Source: Escherichia coli O127:H6 str. E2348/69
GTDB lineage: Bacteria; Pseudomonadota; Gammaproteobacteria; Enterobacterales; Enterobacteriaceae
Assembly (NCBI RefSeq): GCF_000026545.1
Contig: NC_011601.1
Direction: 5' to 3' (one strand)
Length of the DNA stretch: 64,000 nt
In this document: one piece after another, positions 50,366 to 58,279 of the stretch
How the letters are laid out: every line of letters begins with the position of its first letter
How positions within the stretch are numbered: the stretch's first letter is position 1
Translations under genes and position numbers: made by a program
The notes under the pieces: model-generated
Told to the model about the DNA's origin: nothing
Databases searched by the model: none
Seen by the model: only the letters and a program-made list of their open reading frames with translations

Positions 50366-51268
<903 letters not shown>

Positions 51269-51311: not shown

Positions 51312-51983
51312 ATGAAAACCACCCTCCCCCTCATCGCCAGCATCTCTGTTGATGAACAGAAAAACAGATTGATCGAATGCTTCCGGGAATATTGGGGCGT
51401 ACAGCAGATTAACGACCGCCATGACAACATTGCACTCCGCGTAGGCAAAGGTAAACATGGTTGCCACTTTATCTGGTCAGAAAAAAATATCGATATTCAT
51501 TATTACTGTGACCGTGAAATGTCGCCTCAGGAATGGTCAAAGATCGTGACGGTGATGACCGTCGCGCTGGATACCCCCATACCGCCCTATTATCTTGATA
51601 GAGATGAGAAAAGACATCGCACCACTTTGCGGAAAACACATCGCCGGGGAGACAATAGTATTGGATGTTTTATCTACCCCTACAAAGAAGAGGCAAATGG
51701 TGGGTGGGATTATAATGTTGAAAGTCTTTTCATTTACGAATGCGATTTCACGATACTGGCGGCAGGCATTAAGGCGTGCTATCCGCTCAATAATGGTGAA
51801 CGCGCGTTTGATTATACGAGCTGGAATGAATTTACCGTTGCTGAATGTGAGAGAATAATTTCGTCCTGGCTGGATGCAGGGCAAGAAAATGAGAGCTACA
51901 CGCCATTCATTCAATACGTGGTTGAATGGATGCAGCCCCTTATGCGGGAATATGACACGATTATGATTGAAGGTAATCTCTAA
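51312..51983 (+). CDS. Hypothetical protein (223 aa), no recognisable domain
   Basis: Uninterrupted ORF 43 bp after hemF. Cys/His/Trp/Tyr-rich, with no signal peptide or TM segment. Its stop codon overlaps the stop of the convergent helicase gene. Confidence 0.55.
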   Translation: MKTTLPLIASISVDEQKNRLIECFREYWGVQQINDRHDNIALRVGKGKHGCHFIWSEKNIDIHYYCDREMSPQEWSKIVTVMTVALDTPIPPYYLDRDEKRHRTTLRKTHRRGDNSIGCFIYPYKEEANGGWDYNVESLFIYECDFTILAAGIKACYPLNNGERAFDYTSWNEFTVAECERIISSWLDAGQENESYTPFIQYVVEWMQPLMREYDTIMIEGNL

Positions 51984-54900
51984 TCCTGGCCTGCCCTGAA
52001 CAGCTCTTCCAGTTCATCATCCGTCATCTTACCCAACCACTGCTCGCCGCTGCCGACAGTCATCTCCGCCAGCGCTTTTTTATTTCTGATCATGTCGTTG
52101 ATCCGCTCTTCAAACGTCTCACGGGTCAACAGGCGATGCACCTGCACATTACGCTGCTGGCCGATACGATAGGCGCGGTCGGTGGCCTGCGCTTCCACCG
52201 CCGGGTTCCACCATAAATCGTAATGAATCACCTGGCTGGCGGCGGTCAGATTCAGCCCCGTACCACCAGCTTTCAGCGACAGAATAAAGTGGCGTACAGA
52301 ACGGTCATTTTGAAAACGTTCGACCTGCTCATCGCGCTTTTTGCGGCTTAAGCCGCCGTGTAAAAACAGGGGTTGTTCGCCATAACGCGCGGTAAGCCAG
52401 CTTTGCAGTAGTTCGCCCATCTCTTTGAACTGGGTAAAAATCAGCACCTTTTCTGTTGTCTCTTCAATGCTGTCCAGAAGATCCAATAACAGTTGCGCCT
52501 TGCCAGAAAGCGCCGCATCCATCTGCTTATTTTTCAGATAGTGCGCCGGATGGTTACAGACCTGCTTCAACGCCATAATCATTTGCAGCACCAGCCCCTG
52601 ACGCTGGAAGGCATCAGACTCCCCACGGATCACCTGCATCCCTTCGCGCACGACGGACGCATAAATTGCCGCCTGTTTAGTTGCCAGTTCACAGAAACGG
52701 TCGGTTTCAATTTTTTCGGGCAGATCGCTGATGATGGTTTTGTCCGATTTCAGCCGACGCAGCAAAAATGGCGCGGTTATGCGGCGAAAACGTTCAGCAA
52801 CCTGTTGATTACGATCCATCTGGATCGGTTTCTCAATCTCCGAAATAAACGTTTTTAGCGGCCCCAGATAGCCACGCAGAGCAAAGTCCATAATGCTCCA
52901 GTATTCTGCAAGACGGTTTTCCACCGGCGTACCGCTTAGAGCAATAAACGCATCGGCAGGAATTGATTTTGCAGCCTTCGTCTGTGCCGAGGCCGGATTT
53001 TTTAGATTTTGTGCCTCATCCGCCGCCACCAGACGCCAGTGCTGTTTCTTTAACGTTGCGGCATCGCTACGCACCACGCCGTAAGTGGTGAGCAGGATAT
53101 CCGGCATCTCATCGGACAACGCGCGCTTGCCGCCGTGGTATATCGCCGTCGTTAACGTTGGGGCGAAACGAGCGATTTCTCGTTGCCAGTTAGTCAACAA
53201 GGTGGTCGGCATGATAATCAGCACCTTACGCTCCGCCAGCGCGCCTGTCTCTTTTTGATGCTGAATGACAGCGATAAGCTGAAGCGTTTTCCCGAGGCCC
53301 ATATCATCGGCCAGGATGCCGCCGATCCCCAGCGCCAGGTTATGCGTCAGCCAGGCAAAACCCGTTTGCTGATAGGGCCGCAGCGTGGCGTTAAGAGAAA
53401 CGGGCTGAGAGGGCATACCAACCGAGGTCAATTGCCGAAGTTGCTCACGCGCCGCGCTATCCAGCATAATCGGCGTGCCTGCGTACTCACCGGACAACGC
53501 CGTCTGCGTTAGCGCCATGCCTTTAATGTCCGGTGGATTTAACAGCTTATTGCGCAGTCGGGCGATTTCGTCAGGGTCAAGATAGATAAACTGTTCTTTG
53601 AAACGTACAATCCCTTCGGCACTGTCAATGAGCGTTTCAAATTCAGTAACCGTCAGTTGCCTGTCTCCCAACGCAATGCGCCAGTCAAAATCGAACAGAT
53701 TTCCCAGTTGAAACCCGCTGCTGCCTCCCGCGCCGGAGGATGATTTCACCTGCATGCTGAGTCTGGGGCGTAATATTTTATCCAGCGCTTTCGGCAGCAA
53801 CGCCTGAATGCCCAGCATGCGAATAACGGGCAACGCGGTAAAGAGAAAATCCGGCAACGTTTGTGCGGTGAGGCGCAGCGCCTGCCGCCCTCCGGCACGC
53901 AGATACTCACACAACGGAGGGTAGAATTCCGCCAACATCGCCAGCGTTTGCAGGACGGCCATCCGTGTATTTTCGTAGCATTTTTGCCACAGAATATCCG
54001 CCAGCATCACTGGCGCGGGCTGGTCCGTTATTTTCACCGCCAGATGCAGCGCAAAGTCTTCCCCGGCTTCATCCAGCATAATCACTGGCGGCTGCTCGCG
54101 ATGCACCAGCGTCAGGCGCGACAGCCATTGTGCGATACTGGCGGCGCTGGCGCTTTCCCGTCGCGAGTCAAATGTCACCCGCCCGGTGAGGAAAAAGAGC
54201 TTGTCATATGGCGTATCGCCTTTCTTCAGGGGAACCGACTGTACCAACCGATCAAGCATCAGCGAGCACAAGGTTATAGCCTGCCGCTTGCCGGTAAGCG
54301 CCCAATCGTTAAAAGAGATCAACCCGTCCGGCAATTGTCGGGCGACCTGTTCGAGCAAATTATCGACCGTTACATCCAGCGTAGCTGGAAGCCAGCGAAC
54401 CAGCGTCTCACTTTCACAGGAAAAAACCTGTGGCATAACTGCGCCTTTCGCCAGCAGATGAACAGCGAATTGCCAGGCCAGGTGTAAACCTGCGACGGAA
54501 GGTTGCAACATCTGCAAGCGTCGCGGGGTCAAATTTTTCAGCTCCCCCAGCAGCGTGGAGAGATCTTTAAGATGCGTAATACCCTGCACGCAACAGCGGT
54601 AATCCCCGTCAATTCTGAGCATCGGGGATTCGGTTGCTCCCAGCGCCCACTGCATCTGGCTCTCTGATTCAGGAACAATTTTTTGCAATTGCTCCCCATA
54701 ACGAACAAGGCGTGCCAGTTGTTGGCTGTAAACCTGATGAAAATCACCAAAGGGATAAAAAACCGGATTATCGGGCAACAGTCGCAACAGATCGTGGTGT
54801 AAAGCAGGGATCAGGGTAAAATCCAGCCCCTGATTCGCTTTTTCCTCATGAACAAAAGGTTGATTTGCGAATAGCGCTGACAGCGAGGGGGGAGTGATAA

Positions 54901-55429
54901 AGATCTTTTTGTCGATGTCCATTCCACGCTGGCGCAATGCGGTCGGCAAATCCAGACCATGTAGCGCAAAAACCAGAAACGGATCGCTGTCGATCTGGCG
55001 ACTGATCAGATAAATCACTGCGGCCAGATGTTTACAGGGCACGGCCCAGTCGGGGCAGTTGCAATCCATATGAAGATCTTTCCAGCTCGCGGGGAAAATC
55101 TTGATATTCGTCTCATTCGCCAGATCCAGCACCGTTGGCGAAAGTTCGCGATTTAATAACTGCGAGATAATCAGCGGATCGTTGACCAGCGCATCCAGCA
55201 GGCGTTCTTTTTCCTGCCCGGAAAACGGTGGAACGGTAATTTCAACCGTATAAATGTACGATCCCCGCACTTGCGCACGGATGTGACCGTCCTTGATATC
55301 AAGCTTTTGCACCGCCCCTTTATTCGCGTAGGTACGACCGCGCGGTAAGCGGTTGTCGGCATCAATATGCATCAGCGCGTTTAACCACTGCTGACCCCAC
55401 CAACTCAGTCCATAAGTCTGGATCGCCAT
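51980..55429 (-). CDS. SWIM zinc-finger / SNF2-family helicase (Swi2/Snf2 ATPase with bacterial SNF2-associated N-terminal region)
   Basis: 1149 aa. SWIM CxCx6CxH at aa 123-134 (HMDCNCPDWAVPCKH). SNF2 motif I ILADDMGLGKT at aa 705-715. Motif II DEAQNLKN at aa 804-811. Helicase_C motif VI QATDRAYRIGQ at aa 1081-1091 (nt 52157..52189). Confidence 0.85.
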   Translation of the reverse strand: MAIQTYGLSWWGQQWLNALMHIDADNRLPRGRTYANKGAVQKLDIKDGHIRAQVRGSYIYTVEITVPPFSGQEKERLLDALVNDPLIISQLLNRELSPTVLDLANETNIKIFPASWKDLHMDCNCPDWAVPCKHLAAVIYLISRQIDSDPFLVFALHGLDLPTALRQRGMDIDKKIFITPPSLSALFANQPFVHEEKANQGLDFTLIPALHHDLLRLLPDNPVFYPFGDFHQVYSQQLARLVRYGEQLQKIVPESESQMQWALGATESPMLRIDGDYRCCVQGITHLKDLSTLLGELKNLTPRRLQMLQPSVAGLHLAWQFAVHLLAKGAVMPQVFSCESETLVRWLPATLDVTVDNLLEQVARQLPDGLISFNDWALTGKRQAITLCSLMLDRLVQSVPLKKGDTPYDKLFFLTGRVTFDSRRESASAASIAQWLSRLTLVHREQPPVIMLDEAGEDFALHLAVKITDQPAPVMLADILWQKCYENTRMAVLQTLAMLAEFYPPLCEYLRAGGRQALRLTAQTLPDFLFTALPVIRMLGIQALLPKALDKILRPRLSMQVKSSSGAGGSSGFQLGNLFDFDWRIALGDRQLTVTEFETLIDSAEGIVRFKEQFIYLDPDEIARLRNKLLNPPDIKGMALTQTALSGEYAGTPIMLDSAAREQLRQLTSVGMPSQPVSLNATLRPYQQTGFAWLTHNLALGIGGILADDMGLGKTLQLIAVIQHQKETGALAERKVLIIMPTTLLTNWQREIARFAPTLTTAIYHGGKRALSDEMPDILLTTYGVVRSDAATLKKQHWRLVAADEAQNLKNPASAQTKAAKSIPADAFIALSGTPVENRLAEYWSIMDFALRGYLGPLKTFISEIEKPIQMDRNQQVAERFRRITAPFLLRRLKSDKTIISDLPEKIETDRFCELATKQAAIYASVVREGMQVIRGESDAFQRQGLVLQMIMALKQVCNHPAHYLKNKQMDAALSGKAQLLLDLLDSIEETTEKVLIFTQFKEMGELLQSWLTARYGEQPLFLHGGLSRKKRDEQVERFQNDRSVRHFILSLKAGGTGLNLTAASQVIHYDLWWNPAVEAQATDRAYRIGQQRNVQVHRLLTRETFEERINDMIRNKKALAEMTVGSGEQWLGKMTDDELEELFRAGQD

Positions 55430-55512: not shown

Positions 55513-56790
55513 ATGGAGCAACCTCCAATGAGCGAACGCCTCGCCTGTAAAAACCCTGATTGCTCAAACCGTATTCTGCCACAAACCGCAGCGCGCACCG
55601 GTGGGTTTTGTATGCCCTGCATTCAGGCCCAACAGCAGCGTGAACGCGATGAATATATCAGGAAAAATAAAAAGACCGTGAATGCGTTTGCAGGGTTAAG
55701 CGATCCGGTTGCCATGCTGAAATTAGTTCACCAACCGCGAAAATTCGATGCGTTAATCGATTGGACTCCCTCCCCCATTCGCACCGATGCCCTGTATCAA
55801 CAACTGACCGCCGATCAAGCGCAGCAGATAGCTGATTACGCCACAGAACGCTTTGTATCTGGTGAATATAAGCTCGCTCAGGAGATTTGGCTTTGTCTGG
55901 CGGCATTTACCCAGGCCAATCTGGATGCGTATTTCAGAGAATGGATCTCTTACGATGATTTAGACAGTTATTCTTACATGCCTTTCCACCGCGCCCCTGT
56001 GGATGTTCGCGATACGCTGTTAGAACGGGTTGAGGTTGATGCAGACAACAGAAACTGTATTCTGCAATGTCTGGCATGGATTGGGGATGACGTTGTTGTT
56101 GAGCATTTTTCCCGCTGGCGTCTTAACCCGCCGTCGTGGCGCAGTTCACTTTACATCGCGCCAGAAGAATATGCGCATGAGGCCGGTTGGGAGCTAACCG
56201 TTGAAGGGCAAAGGCGTAATCTCTATTTTCCTCAATGTTTTCATCTGGAGATGAAAAACACCGGGTGTTGCGAAGCTTTGCGTGTTGTTGATGAACGCAG
56301 CGAAACCTGTCCAAATTGCGCATTGCCACTAACAGATCTTTTCGACGTTGACCTGAAGGCAACGGGTCTTAGCGATAACGGCAGGTTTCGCGTCGTGACT
56401 TGTGAATGTTGCACCGCCTACAGCACCATTTTTGGTTACATAGACTCACGGGGTAATGCTCATTTGTCTGCAAAAAATATCCCGCCAGCCTGGCTGCCGG
56501 ATGATGTATCTGAATGGCGTCGGTTACCTGTAAACAGCATGAGACGGGGAAACCTTCGACCACCGTTATTCGCCGCAGACCAATTTTTACCTGTCTCTTT
56601 CTCGCAACTTGGCGGGCATCCAACCTGGATTCAGGACGCGGAATATCCTCTCTGCCCGGAATGCTCCCGCTCAATGACGTTTCTTGCGCAACTGGATTAT
56701 GCCGATATTGAACAATACGGCGAAGGGATAATTTACGCGTTTATCTGCCCGGAGTGCCGGACAACAGCGACGTCTTATCAGCAATCTTAG
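55513..56790 (+). CDS. DUF1963 (YwqG-like) domain protein with three CxxC-type zinc-ribbon pairs
   Basis: 425 aa (the start could be 55513 or the ATG at 55528). The C-terminus GGHPTWIQDAEYPLCPECSRSMTFLAQL...FICPEC matches the YwqG/DUF1963 C-terminal signature as I remember it. Extra Cys pairs at aa 12-36 and 266-300. Divergent from the helicase gene. Confidence 0.6.
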   Translation: MEQPPMSERLACKNPDCSNRILPQTAARTGGFCMPCIQAQQQRERDEYIRKNKKTVNAFAGLSDPVAMLKLVHQPRKFDALIDWTPSPIRTDALYQQLTADQAQQIADYATERFVSGEYKLAQEIWLCLAAFTQANLDAYFREWISYDDLDSYSYMPFHRAPVDVRDTLLERVEVDADNRNCILQCLAWIGDDVVVEHFSRWRLNPPSWRSSLYIAPEEYAHEAGWELTVEGQRRNLYFPQCFHLEMKNTGCCEALRVVDERSETCPNCALPLTDLFDVDLKATGLSDNGRFRVVTCECCTAYSTIFGYIDSRGNAHLSAKNIPPAWLPDDVSEWRRLPVNSMRRGNLRPPLFAADQFLPVSFSQLGGHPTWIQDAEYPLCPECSRSMTFLAQLDYADIEQYGEGIIYAFICPECRTTATSYQQS

Positions 56791-56830: not shown

Positions 56831-57148
56831 ATGTCAGACACATCACATAAAGAAAGTAAATGGCACCCTCATCTGGATATGAGTTTTCTGGGATGCGTGC
56901 TGGCATTTGCTATGGAAGTTTATTTTGAAGAACACATTTTTATTCCCCACGGTGGAGGAGCAAGTTTTGGATTGATAGCACTCATCGTTATTAATTTTAT
57001 GACTATCCCGATAGTGATCGTGGTAACAACACTATTTTGTTATTTATTTGAAATTTCGCGAAAGCGTGTAAATCGTATTTTGATATTCCTGTTGGCATGT
57101 ATTTTGACTATTATCGGTTTGTTTATCGCATATCCCGTCGGGCAATAA
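56831..57148 (+). CDS. Small integral membrane protein (105 aa, about 3 predicted TM helices), unknown function
   Basis: Strongly AT-rich ORF 40 bp after the DUF1963 gene, with ggag upstream of the ATG. Hydrophobic stretches: FLGCVLAFAMEVYF, FGLIALIVINFMTIPIVIVVTTLFCYLF, ILIFLLACILTIIGLFIAYPV. Confidence 0.55.
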   Translation: MSDTSHKESKWHPHLDMSFLGCVLAFAMEVYFEEHIFIPHGGGASFGLIALIVINFMTIPIVIVVTTLFCYLFEISRKRVNRILIFLLACILTIIGLFIAYPVGQ

Positions 57149-57226: not shown

Positions 57227-58279
57227 TCACCCCCACTCTCTCATCCGCTGATGCAGCGTCAGTGACGGCTTCTCGGCAAACAGTTGCTGATAATCCGTGG
57301 CAAATTGCCCAAGATGCCAGAATCCCCACTGCATGGCGGCGTCTTTTACCGTTGTGCTTTGTGACCACGGACTTATGAGTTCGCGGCGCACGGCGTTCAG
57401 GCGAATACGTTTCAGCCACGCGTTCGGACCAATGCCCAAAATGGCGTGAAACGCGTTTTGTAGCGTGCGGCGGCTGACATGCAGTTGATTGCACAACTCC
57501 AACACCGTCACCGGTTCGGACATGTTTTCCAGCACATATTCACGGGCGCGGGAAAGCAATCGACGGTAACTCTGATGACTGATGCTTTCCGCCGTCATCA
57601 TCGGCTGCGCTTCTTCCAGCATCGCCCCCATCGCCATTAGCAAATTATCCCCCAGCACTTTTCGCACTGCAGGCTGATGGAGATTTTCCGGGTTCTCGCA
57701 AAACGTCGCCAGCGCCTGTTGGACAAAGCCCCACAGAGCGGCTTTATGCTGCTCTTTCACTTCCTGCGCCGACTGGCTACGCAGCATATGTAATACCCGA
57801 TCCGGATTATGCAAAAAGTTAGCCTGACGAGTGATGACATCTTCAGAAAGCACTACGCCAAGGATCGTGTAATCGTCCGGCGTACTTAATTCAAACTCGG
57901 TTCCACCAGGGCGCGTCGCAATTTCTGCGCTTCCCAGACATTGCGAACCGATAAATCCCTGCTCACCGCGCGTCGCCGGAATGCCAAACCAGAACGAGTT
58001 CGGCCAGACCAGGCACGACTGACGCAGCGCCAGACCAGTGTATTCACGAAAAACCTGAATATCATCGAGTAGAATTTCCGTAAATTCACCATGAAACTTG
58101 CCCGGATGCAGCAGATCGTAAATCTGCTGCCAGGCGGTAATTGTCAAAGCATGTTCATAGACGTCCGTTGTCTGTCGTTGATGAACATTATCCACTTCGA
58201 CCTTCGGCGTGAACTTCAGGTTTTCGGGTAAGGGTTCATGATAAAGATGGTGCAAATTGGCTGTACGGGTCTTTTTCAT
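57227..58279 (-). CDS. eutR: AraC-family ethanolamine operon activator EutR
   Basis: 350-aa ORF with a C-terminal AraC HTH ([37 protein letters not shown]). Confidence 0.93.

Follow-up and report, generated by a model that had tools for sequence, protein, structure and literature searches.

In the hemF–eutR region of the Escherichia coli O127:H6 strain E2348/69 chromosome, a single gene encodes a 1149-residue protein (RefSeq WP_001007643.1, labelled 'SNF2-related protein') that joins a SWIM zinc-finger module, through a long region predicted to be folded, to an SNF2 ATPase. With a little more confidence than doubt, we propose that this protein acts as a stand-alone, SsoRad54-like translocase on double-stranded DNA (dsDNA), steered by its N-terminal assembly and remodelling a protein–DNA complex, with genome maintenance as the favoured role. 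The DNA analysed was a stretch of 64,000 nucleotides (nt), hereafter the window, in which the hemF–eutR region was recognised by a 100% identity match over 6.1 kb. According to the listing of open reading frames (ORFs) and their translation, the gene is a single open frame without interruption; it starts with ATG, and a GAGG Shine–Dalgarno sequence lies 10 nt 5' of the start codon. Regular-expression (regex) searches of the translation reproduced exactly the ORF and all motif coordinates reported by an earlier model reading of the DNA letters (the sequence-only reading), including GLSWWGQQWLNAL at amino acids (aa) 7–19, PRGRTYANKGAV at aa 29–40, CNCPDWAVPCKH at aa 123–134 and RPYQ at aa 684–687. 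The gene and its parts are the following:

51980..55429, minus strand: whole gene, SWIM–DUF8276–DUF3670–SNF2 ATPase, 1149 aa
54920..55429, minus strand: N-terminal SWIM module (aa 1–170), with the WWGxxW...RLPRGRxYA motif, a three-stranded sheet and helices up to the zinc finger
55028..55063, minus strand: SWIM zinc signature CxCx6CxH (C123, C125, C132, H134), from regex, homologue alignment and Pfam
54530..54919, minus strand: linker-like helical stretch (aa 171–300), the least constrained part, where the structure model dips in confidence
53885..54529, minus strand: conserved alpha/beta middle (aa 301–515), made of helix and beta-hairpin modules, with NCBIfam matches
53531..53884, minus strand: DUF3670 (PF12419, 'SNF2 Helicase protein'; aa 516–633), 91.6 bits against 27.6, E = 4.4e-26
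53285..53299, minus strand: motif I, GLGKT (aa 711–715), from regex
53009..53020, minus strand: motif II, DEAQ (aa 804–807), from regex
52925..52936, minus strand: motif III, SGTP, family-invariant, from regex
52544..53374, minus strand: SNF2-related domain (ATPase lobe 1 plus insertion; aa 686–962), Pfam SNF2-rel_dom, E = 3.5e-64, 217.1 bits
52160..52501, minus strand: Helicase_C (ATPase lobe 2; aa 977–1090), Pfam, E = 3.5e-23, 82.4 bits
52157..52189, minus strand: motif VI, QATDRAYRIGQ, family-invariant, from regex

The sequence-only reading had described an SNF2 ATPase with every motif intact, and this is borne out by the Pfam matches, which, to judge from their scores, lie far beyond chance. 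Motifs I, II, III and VI are invariant across 107 homologues, and none of the catalytic-motif substitutions that would signal decay were found. The best relative of known structure is the SWI2/SNF2 core of the Sulfolobus solfataricus enzyme SsoRad54 (SSO1653/SSO1655; PDB 1z63 and 1z6a): the sequence search of the PDB aligned 1z63 with aa 675–1144 at E = 8.8e-121, and Foldseek agreed, pairing the core with 1z63 at 40% identity. Mot1 (E = 1.9e-73), INO80, ISWI and CSB followed in the PDB search. By best-hit criteria the E. coli protein is thus an SSO1653-like member of the Snf2 family, and Pfam places it in DUF3670 as well. A large share of prokaryotic genomes encode ATPases of the SSO1653 type; we know of no bacterial SWIM-linked one with a demonstrated function. 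The likeness to SsoRad54 extends to layout, both being prokaryotic single polypeptides with a long N-terminal extension, of which only the core has been solved in the archaeal enzyme. The ATPase activity of full-length SsoRad54 depends on dsDNA, and the enzyme alters the topology of duplex DNA (PMC2677860); PMC1616948 describes Snf2 enzymes as translocating along duplex DNA without unwinding it. By analogy, the C-terminal motor (aa ~676–1149) would be an ATP-driven dsDNA translocase and not a strand-separating helicase.

AlphaFold2 models built on the 107-sequence alignment reached a mean predicted local distance difference test score (pLDDT) of 84.9 and a predicted template modelling score (pTM) of 0.70 for the full-length protein, and a pLDDT of 91.1 and a pTM of 0.88 for aa 1–675 alone (above 90 in aa 301–515). 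The region ahead of the motor, whose domains the sequence-only reading had wished to delimit in this way, is therefore predicted to be folded and not a linker. At its N-terminal end, the WWGxxW...RLPRGRxYA motif is invariant, and so are C123, C125, C132 and H134 in the 107 homologues. The SWIM finger proposed earlier finds support in this invariant signature, whereas its Pfam score remains marginally short: PF04434 matched aa 122–140 at 17.2–18.0 bits, against a gathering threshold of 19.6. Homologous SWIM modules clear that threshold with 22.4, 25.1 and 30.3 bits, aa 4–237 are homologous to stand-alone 'SWIM zinc finger family' proteins, and in the model the module has a SWIM-like fold. It also matched in structure, at 14% identity, the human protein ZSWIM8 (PDB 9rwz), the SWIM substrate receptor of a cullin-RING ligase, which differs in being a eukaryotic ubiquitin-ligase adaptor without an ATPase. 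This match marks the module as SWIM-like and as a possible binder of protein, and is silent on shared function.

The approximately 540 residues between finger and motor had been taken as unassigned and as probably equivalent to the 'SNF2 helicase associated' region (PF08455) of the Bacillus subtilis YwqA type. The second idea had to be abandoned, as PF08455 gave no match at E ≤ 1 in this protein and none at E ≤ 0.1 in seven homologues. The first holds in part. The stretch is not wholly unassigned, given that DUF3670 covers aa 516–633 (it was found in 7/7 N-terminal homologues and in the split-gene helicases described below) and that a precomputed match to PF26921 (DUF8276), 5' of DUF3670, is on record for the exact protein and for homologues, probably located within aa 301–515 or upstream of that stretch. 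By profile match, however, the middle region is catalogued in Pfam solely as domains of unknown function (DUFs). Two NCBIfam profiles also covered it, the 'SCO1167/SCO6262 family helicase' (NF058637) aligning with aa 305–1144 and the cyanobacterial sll1366 domain profile with aa 345–714, from which we conclude that the middle region is common to SNF2 helicases of several phyla. With 679.1 bits where the cutoff is 1200, the E. coli protein falls outside the NF058637 equivalog and counts as a relative of this actinobacterial family, which it resembles by profile match only. In general description it is like the YwqA type, another bacterial SNF2 ATPase that has a SWIM finger and, ahead of the motor, a long region; the two are set apart by PF08455 versus PF12419 plus PF26921, a distinction drawn from profiles.

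No internal repeats were found in aa 1–633 by hhalign (all probabilities ≤1.2%), and neither Pfam, NCBIfam and PADLOC profiles nor structure searches revealed a nuclease or other effector domain. When aa 1–675 were used as the query, the profile search of the PDB returned nothing at E ≤ 10 and Foldseek nothing at E ≤ 0.001. For aa ~170–675 there is accordingly no solved relative, a result that is provisional because a 675-residue query penalises matches to small domains.

That the SWIM module and the helicase work together is indicated by loci in which they are encoded separately. A tblastn search of plasmids with aa 1–675 recovered full-length homologues on Cupriavidus megaplasmids and on 70-kb plasmids of Aeromonas salmonicida, as well as many stand-alone 'SWIM zinc finger family' genes covering just aa ~4–240. 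On plasmid pBjCNPSo31a of Bradyrhizobium japonicum and on a Streptomyces linear plasmid, a helicase gene is followed by a SWIM gene with a 4-nt overlap:

Locus L087, 3179..6879: split locus on the Bradyrhizobium conjugative plasmid
Locus L088, 3122..7191: split locus on the Streptomyces linear (mobilizable) plasmid

The helicases (901 and 944 aa in Bradyrhizobium and Streptomyces, respectively) carry DUF3670, SNF2 and Helicase_C, and the SWIM proteins have 332 and 412 aa. In Bradyrhizobium the helicase aligns with aa 490–1143 of the E. coli protein (37% identity, E = 3e-126) and the SWIM protein with aa 4–237 (30% identity, E = 5e-30). Since separate and overlapping genes for the two parts exist elsewhere, we conclude that the parts act as one unit, of which the E. 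coli protein is the fusion; the 4-nt overlap suggests translational coupling. The split form differs in that it consists of two polypeptides with the helicase first, while in E. coli there is one chain with SWIM at the N-terminus. The mycobacterial pair HelZ/Rv2101 and Rv2102 is, we assume, another example of the two-gene form. Proteins consisting of the N-terminal part alone (P0016, P0027, P0054 and others) were at first candidates for a genuine split form and were rejected as frameshifts, because their C-termini resemble out-of-frame translation.

Several observations accompany these loci. In Bradyrhizobium, a gene for a RecD-like helicase lies just upstream of the split locus. The A. salmonicida plasmid pS68-1 (70 kb, typed conjugative) carries a full-length homologue of 1162 aa (L089, 7001..10489) in an accessory region that also contains a reverse transcriptase and helix-turn-helix (HTH) pair, an AIPR-family protein, Hok/Gef, insertion sequence elements and recombinases. 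A Wolbachia phage WO record (MN180251.1, marked UNVERIFIED; L090, 7992..10832) contains a SWIM plus DUF3670 homologue with 30.7% identity over aa 6–675; at 946 aa it ends within the SNF2 domain, without Helicase_C, and is probably truncated or split.

The architecture belongs to a conserved, large family, as the profile and pattern search counts indicate. Searching with aa 1–676 yielded more than 1800 proteins, the best 120 of which are mostly full-length (about 1150–1180 aa), 41–46% identical over 99–100% of the query, with Betaproteobacteria, Gammaproteobacteria and Acidithiobacillia as their sources. When one genome per species was scanned with a pattern, the family turned up in at least 578 species, Bacteroidota and Acidobacteriota included. 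Among 1.84 billion cluster representatives, the N-terminal profile matched 7401 at E ≤ 1e-3 and 1267 at E ≤ 1e-30, mostly of 1150–1250 aa. Four representatives (P0255, P0270, P0273 and P0276) are 1331–1733 aa long and matched the profile in four separate stretches, which would fit inteins (compare the NCBIfam entry 'sll1366 family intein-prone helicase').

Selection on the gene was measured against an 81%-identical orthologue from another enterobacterial genus (P0002, at locus L083). The ratio of nonsynonymous to synonymous substitution rates (dN/dS) was 0.12 overall, in line with the earlier claim of an active enzyme under selection. It was lowest in the SNF2 domain (0.05) and DUF3670 (0.07), followed by the SWIM module (0.10), aa 301–515 (0.17) and aa 171–300 (0.28), the least conserved part with 55% identity. 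The protein is under purifying selection, and its N-terminal region is a real constrained unit.

The sequence-only reading had also proposed the neighbouring gene products as bait for pull-downs. We found no conserved operon partner: in 80 related loci, all-against-all ORF clustering put no neighbour family in more than 7, and homologues of the E. coli neighbours (a 223-aa ORF, a DUF1963 protein and a 105-aa gene) were found in none. The 112 immediate neighbour proteins contain 141 Pfam families, none of them in more than four proteins, and are as diverse as methionine synthase, a tRNA synthetase, Fic and DUF4143/AAA_14, with many housekeeping proteins among them. With no neighbour conserved across the 80 loci, the SNF2 gene stands alone; none of its neighbours stays with it outside enterobacteria, and they are unpromising as bait.

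In E. coli the gene is rare. Megablast, and sensitive blastn with the family-specific part, found it in 8 of 5426 complete genomes, in each case as a single chromosomal copy at the hemF–eutR locus that is annotated as intact; the N-terminal coding part is at least 99.8% identical in five of the eight and 98.5% identical in three. The L083 orthologue occupies the same hemF–eutR position, and there the SNF2 gene has 78.5% nt identity, against 78–84% for the flanking core genes. Judged by this position and these identities, a gene long settled at the locus and since lost from most E. coli lineages would fit at least as well as recent import.

Taken as a mechanism, our preferred reading runs as follows. 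The 675-residue N-terminal assembly, made up of the SWIM module (aa 1–~240) and, joined to it, an alpha/beta region peculiar to the family (DUF8276 plus DUF3670), would steer or gate the motor. It would recognise a protein–DNA target, and the motor would then pull DNA, remodelling or stripping that target in the way of SsoRad54 with RadA, Mot1 with TBP, or CSB with RNA polymerase (RNAP). The role that we favour, non-essential genome maintenance (recombination or repair, or the clearance of stalled complexes), is inferred. We lean towards it because many of the contexts are housekeeping ones, the orthologue keeps its position across genera and no effector domain was found; an immune role is less favoured. 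Several points weigh against this view. Translocase activity would be carried over from about 40% core identity to an archaeal enzyme, and the target-recognition role of aa ~170–675 is without structural precedent. There is no LexA-like box 5' of the gene, and scans for promoters and terminators around it gave counts no higher than in shuffled sequence; with neither a LexA box nor an above-chance promoter signal, the gene is not tied to the DNA-damage response. Its patchy spread (a few E. coli genomes, conjugative plasmids and the phage WO record) fits a function in conflict or on mobile elements at least as well as housekeeping. Lastly, about one-fifth of the immediate neighbours in the 80 loci match PADLOC models of defence or candidate defence, a share to be read without a background rate from random genes.

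These last points bear on the strongest alternative, which we consider unlikely though still a serious contender: single-gene defence against phages or plasmids, in which the SWIM and DUF part would sense invader DNA or protein and the motor would block replication or displace essential factors. Besides its rarity, the gene has the look of accessory cargo, sitting in a mosaic variable spot that holds Tli3, Sel1 and DUF1963 genes in other strains, and the A. salmonicida copy lies on a conjugative plasmid near the reverse transcriptase and HTH pair, the AIPR protein and Hok/Gef. The PADLOC-matching neighbours (Fic four times, PDC-S24 five times, PDC-S01 three times, a type III restriction enzyme, methyltransferases and AbiEi) may point to variable or defence surroundings in a minority of the genomes. 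Within the protein, the top PADLOC scores of the ATPase core are for ZorD (E = 2.5e-124) and DpdE (E = 7.9e-110), and the ZorD structure 8qy7 is among its Foldseek matches. The likeness to these defence SNF2 helicases, and to DrmD and BrxH, is nevertheless confined to the generic core at aa ~660–1144. Scores fall far below the family cutoffs (ZorD, 295.9 against 1500; DrmD, 90.6 against 950; DpdE, 55.7 against 500), the protein has no nuclease or other effector domain, and no partner gene is conserved. The E. coli neighbours gave no PADLOC match and include no partner genes of ZorD, DrmD, DpdE or BrxH. Membership of a known defence system was rejected on these grounds. Many of the genes alongside have housekeeping roles, and the L083 orthologue sits at the same locus with a divergence that tracks core genes, unlike fast-turnover defence cargo.

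A bolder form of this idea, to which we give a smaller chance again, is that the approximately 500 residues of DUF8276 plus DUF3670 constitute a structurally new target-recognition module and that, with SWIM, they would let a single protein sense and disable foreign DNA or an invader protein. If true, chromosomes, conjugative plasmids and the phage WO record would all carry members of a hitherto unrecognised defence family. The region might instead confer a novel protein–DNA remodelling activity in bacteria.

It is also doubtful, and slightly more so, that the protein is a bacterial analogue of Rad54, with a SWIM module that would bind RecA (or a mediator of RecA) and a motor that would remodel RecA–DNA filaments or heteroduplex joints during homologous recombination. 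The closest characterised relative, SsoRad54, binds RadA and stimulates strand exchange (PMC2677860). This interaction is a feature of the archaeal enzyme, and no partner is known for the E. coli protein. A match to Shu2 was below significance, the gene shows no recA link, no SOS box and no recombination genes in its neighbourhood, and nearly all E. coli do without it. In B. subtilis depleted of PcrA, loss of YwqA, a different SWIM–SNF2 type, did not suppress the lethality and changed damage survival only marginally (PMC7385302).

We attach very little probability to an RNAP-associated recycling or anti-backtracking factor like RapA/HepA, or as proposed for YwqA, for although Mot1 and CSB, with which the core groups, work on transcription complexes, and YwqA (itself poorly characterised) and HepA are listed among the Swi2/Snf2 translocases that interact with RNAP (PMC7385302), E. 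coli already has RapA, the RapA model scored 60.8 against a cutoff of 576, the YwqA-type PF08455 was not detected and no transcription genes were found nearby. Identity with RapA itself was rejected from the profile cutoff and the gene context. Both the Rad54-like and the RapA- or YwqA-like actions would be narrower versions of the steered translocase that we prefer, with little direct support.

Our literature searches on DUF3670, SCO1167/SCO6262, sll1366 and SWIM with SNF2 found no functional study, as the sequence-only reading had anticipated in stating that such proteins have no established function. Databases already annotate the protein and list its domains as DUFs, so that the finding is not a surprising one. 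Its value lies in access: E2348/69 is genetically tractable and the gene is a lone one, so that it opens a large family to study in E. coli, and the fusion and fission of SWIM and helicase, together with a confident model of aa 1–675, where no relative has been solved beyond the SWIM part, provide experimental handles.

The genes around the SNF2 gene in the window are the following:

50366..51268: hemF, flanking the SNF2 site
51312..51983, plus strand: 223-aa ORF, convergent with the SNF2 gene, the ends overlapping by 4 nt
55513..56790, plus strand: DUF1963 protein, between the SNF2 gene and eutR
56831..57148, plus strand: 105-aa membrane protein of the YpfK family (PF26378 on record for the 61%-identical L083 copy)
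57227..58279: eutR, flanking the SNF2 site

The 223-aa ORF is a real gene, as its L083 counterpart is 56% identical and ungapped, with a dN/dS of 0.12 that indicates purifying selection. Its family comprises eight clusters, the named ones being from Escherichia (E. coli and E. albertii), and it has no Pfam or PADLOC match. The overlap with the SNF2 gene in E2348/69 involves the stop codons; in L083 the two genes are 130 nt apart. In three of four further contexts examined, the ORF occupies the hemF–eutR site without the SNF2 gene, twice beside Tli3 and Sel1 genes. It was rejected as a dedicated partner on account of its restriction to Escherichia-like genomes, its occurrence without the SNF2 gene and its absence from the 80 loci. 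The DUF1963 and 105-aa genes were likewise rejected, as the pair is present at the site in many E. coli that lack the SNF2 gene and is absent from the related loci. The 105-aa ORF has 37% G+C, against 51.5% for the window, and the look of a small multi-pass membrane protein; it accompanies DUF1963 in E. coli, but the 223-aa ORF in L083.

More generally, what lies between hemF and eutR in Escherichia and relatives (L002 and L083–L086) is variable and mosaic. Strains differ in how they combine the 223-aa orphan, DUF1963, the 105-aa gene, a 67-aa ORF, the SNF2 gene, Tli3 and Sel1-repeat genes. From the Tli3 and Sel1 genes, one may suspect orphan toxin-immunity genes at the site. In K-12-like strains the site is, we presume, empty.

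Further along the window, a Mu-like prophage, whose end gave no megablast match in the phage collection, truncates eutC. Three of its genes were recognised:

60247..60894, minus strand: CI-type repressor
60927..61313, plus strand: Ner-like HTH_35 protein
61313..63355, plus strand: Mu-type transposase

In the part of the window examined for it (59507..64000), only the C-terminal ~120–145 residues of eutC are left, in keeping with its RefSeq annotation as a pseudogene missing the N-terminus. Through this truncation by the prophage, the eut operon of E2348/69 is disrupted.

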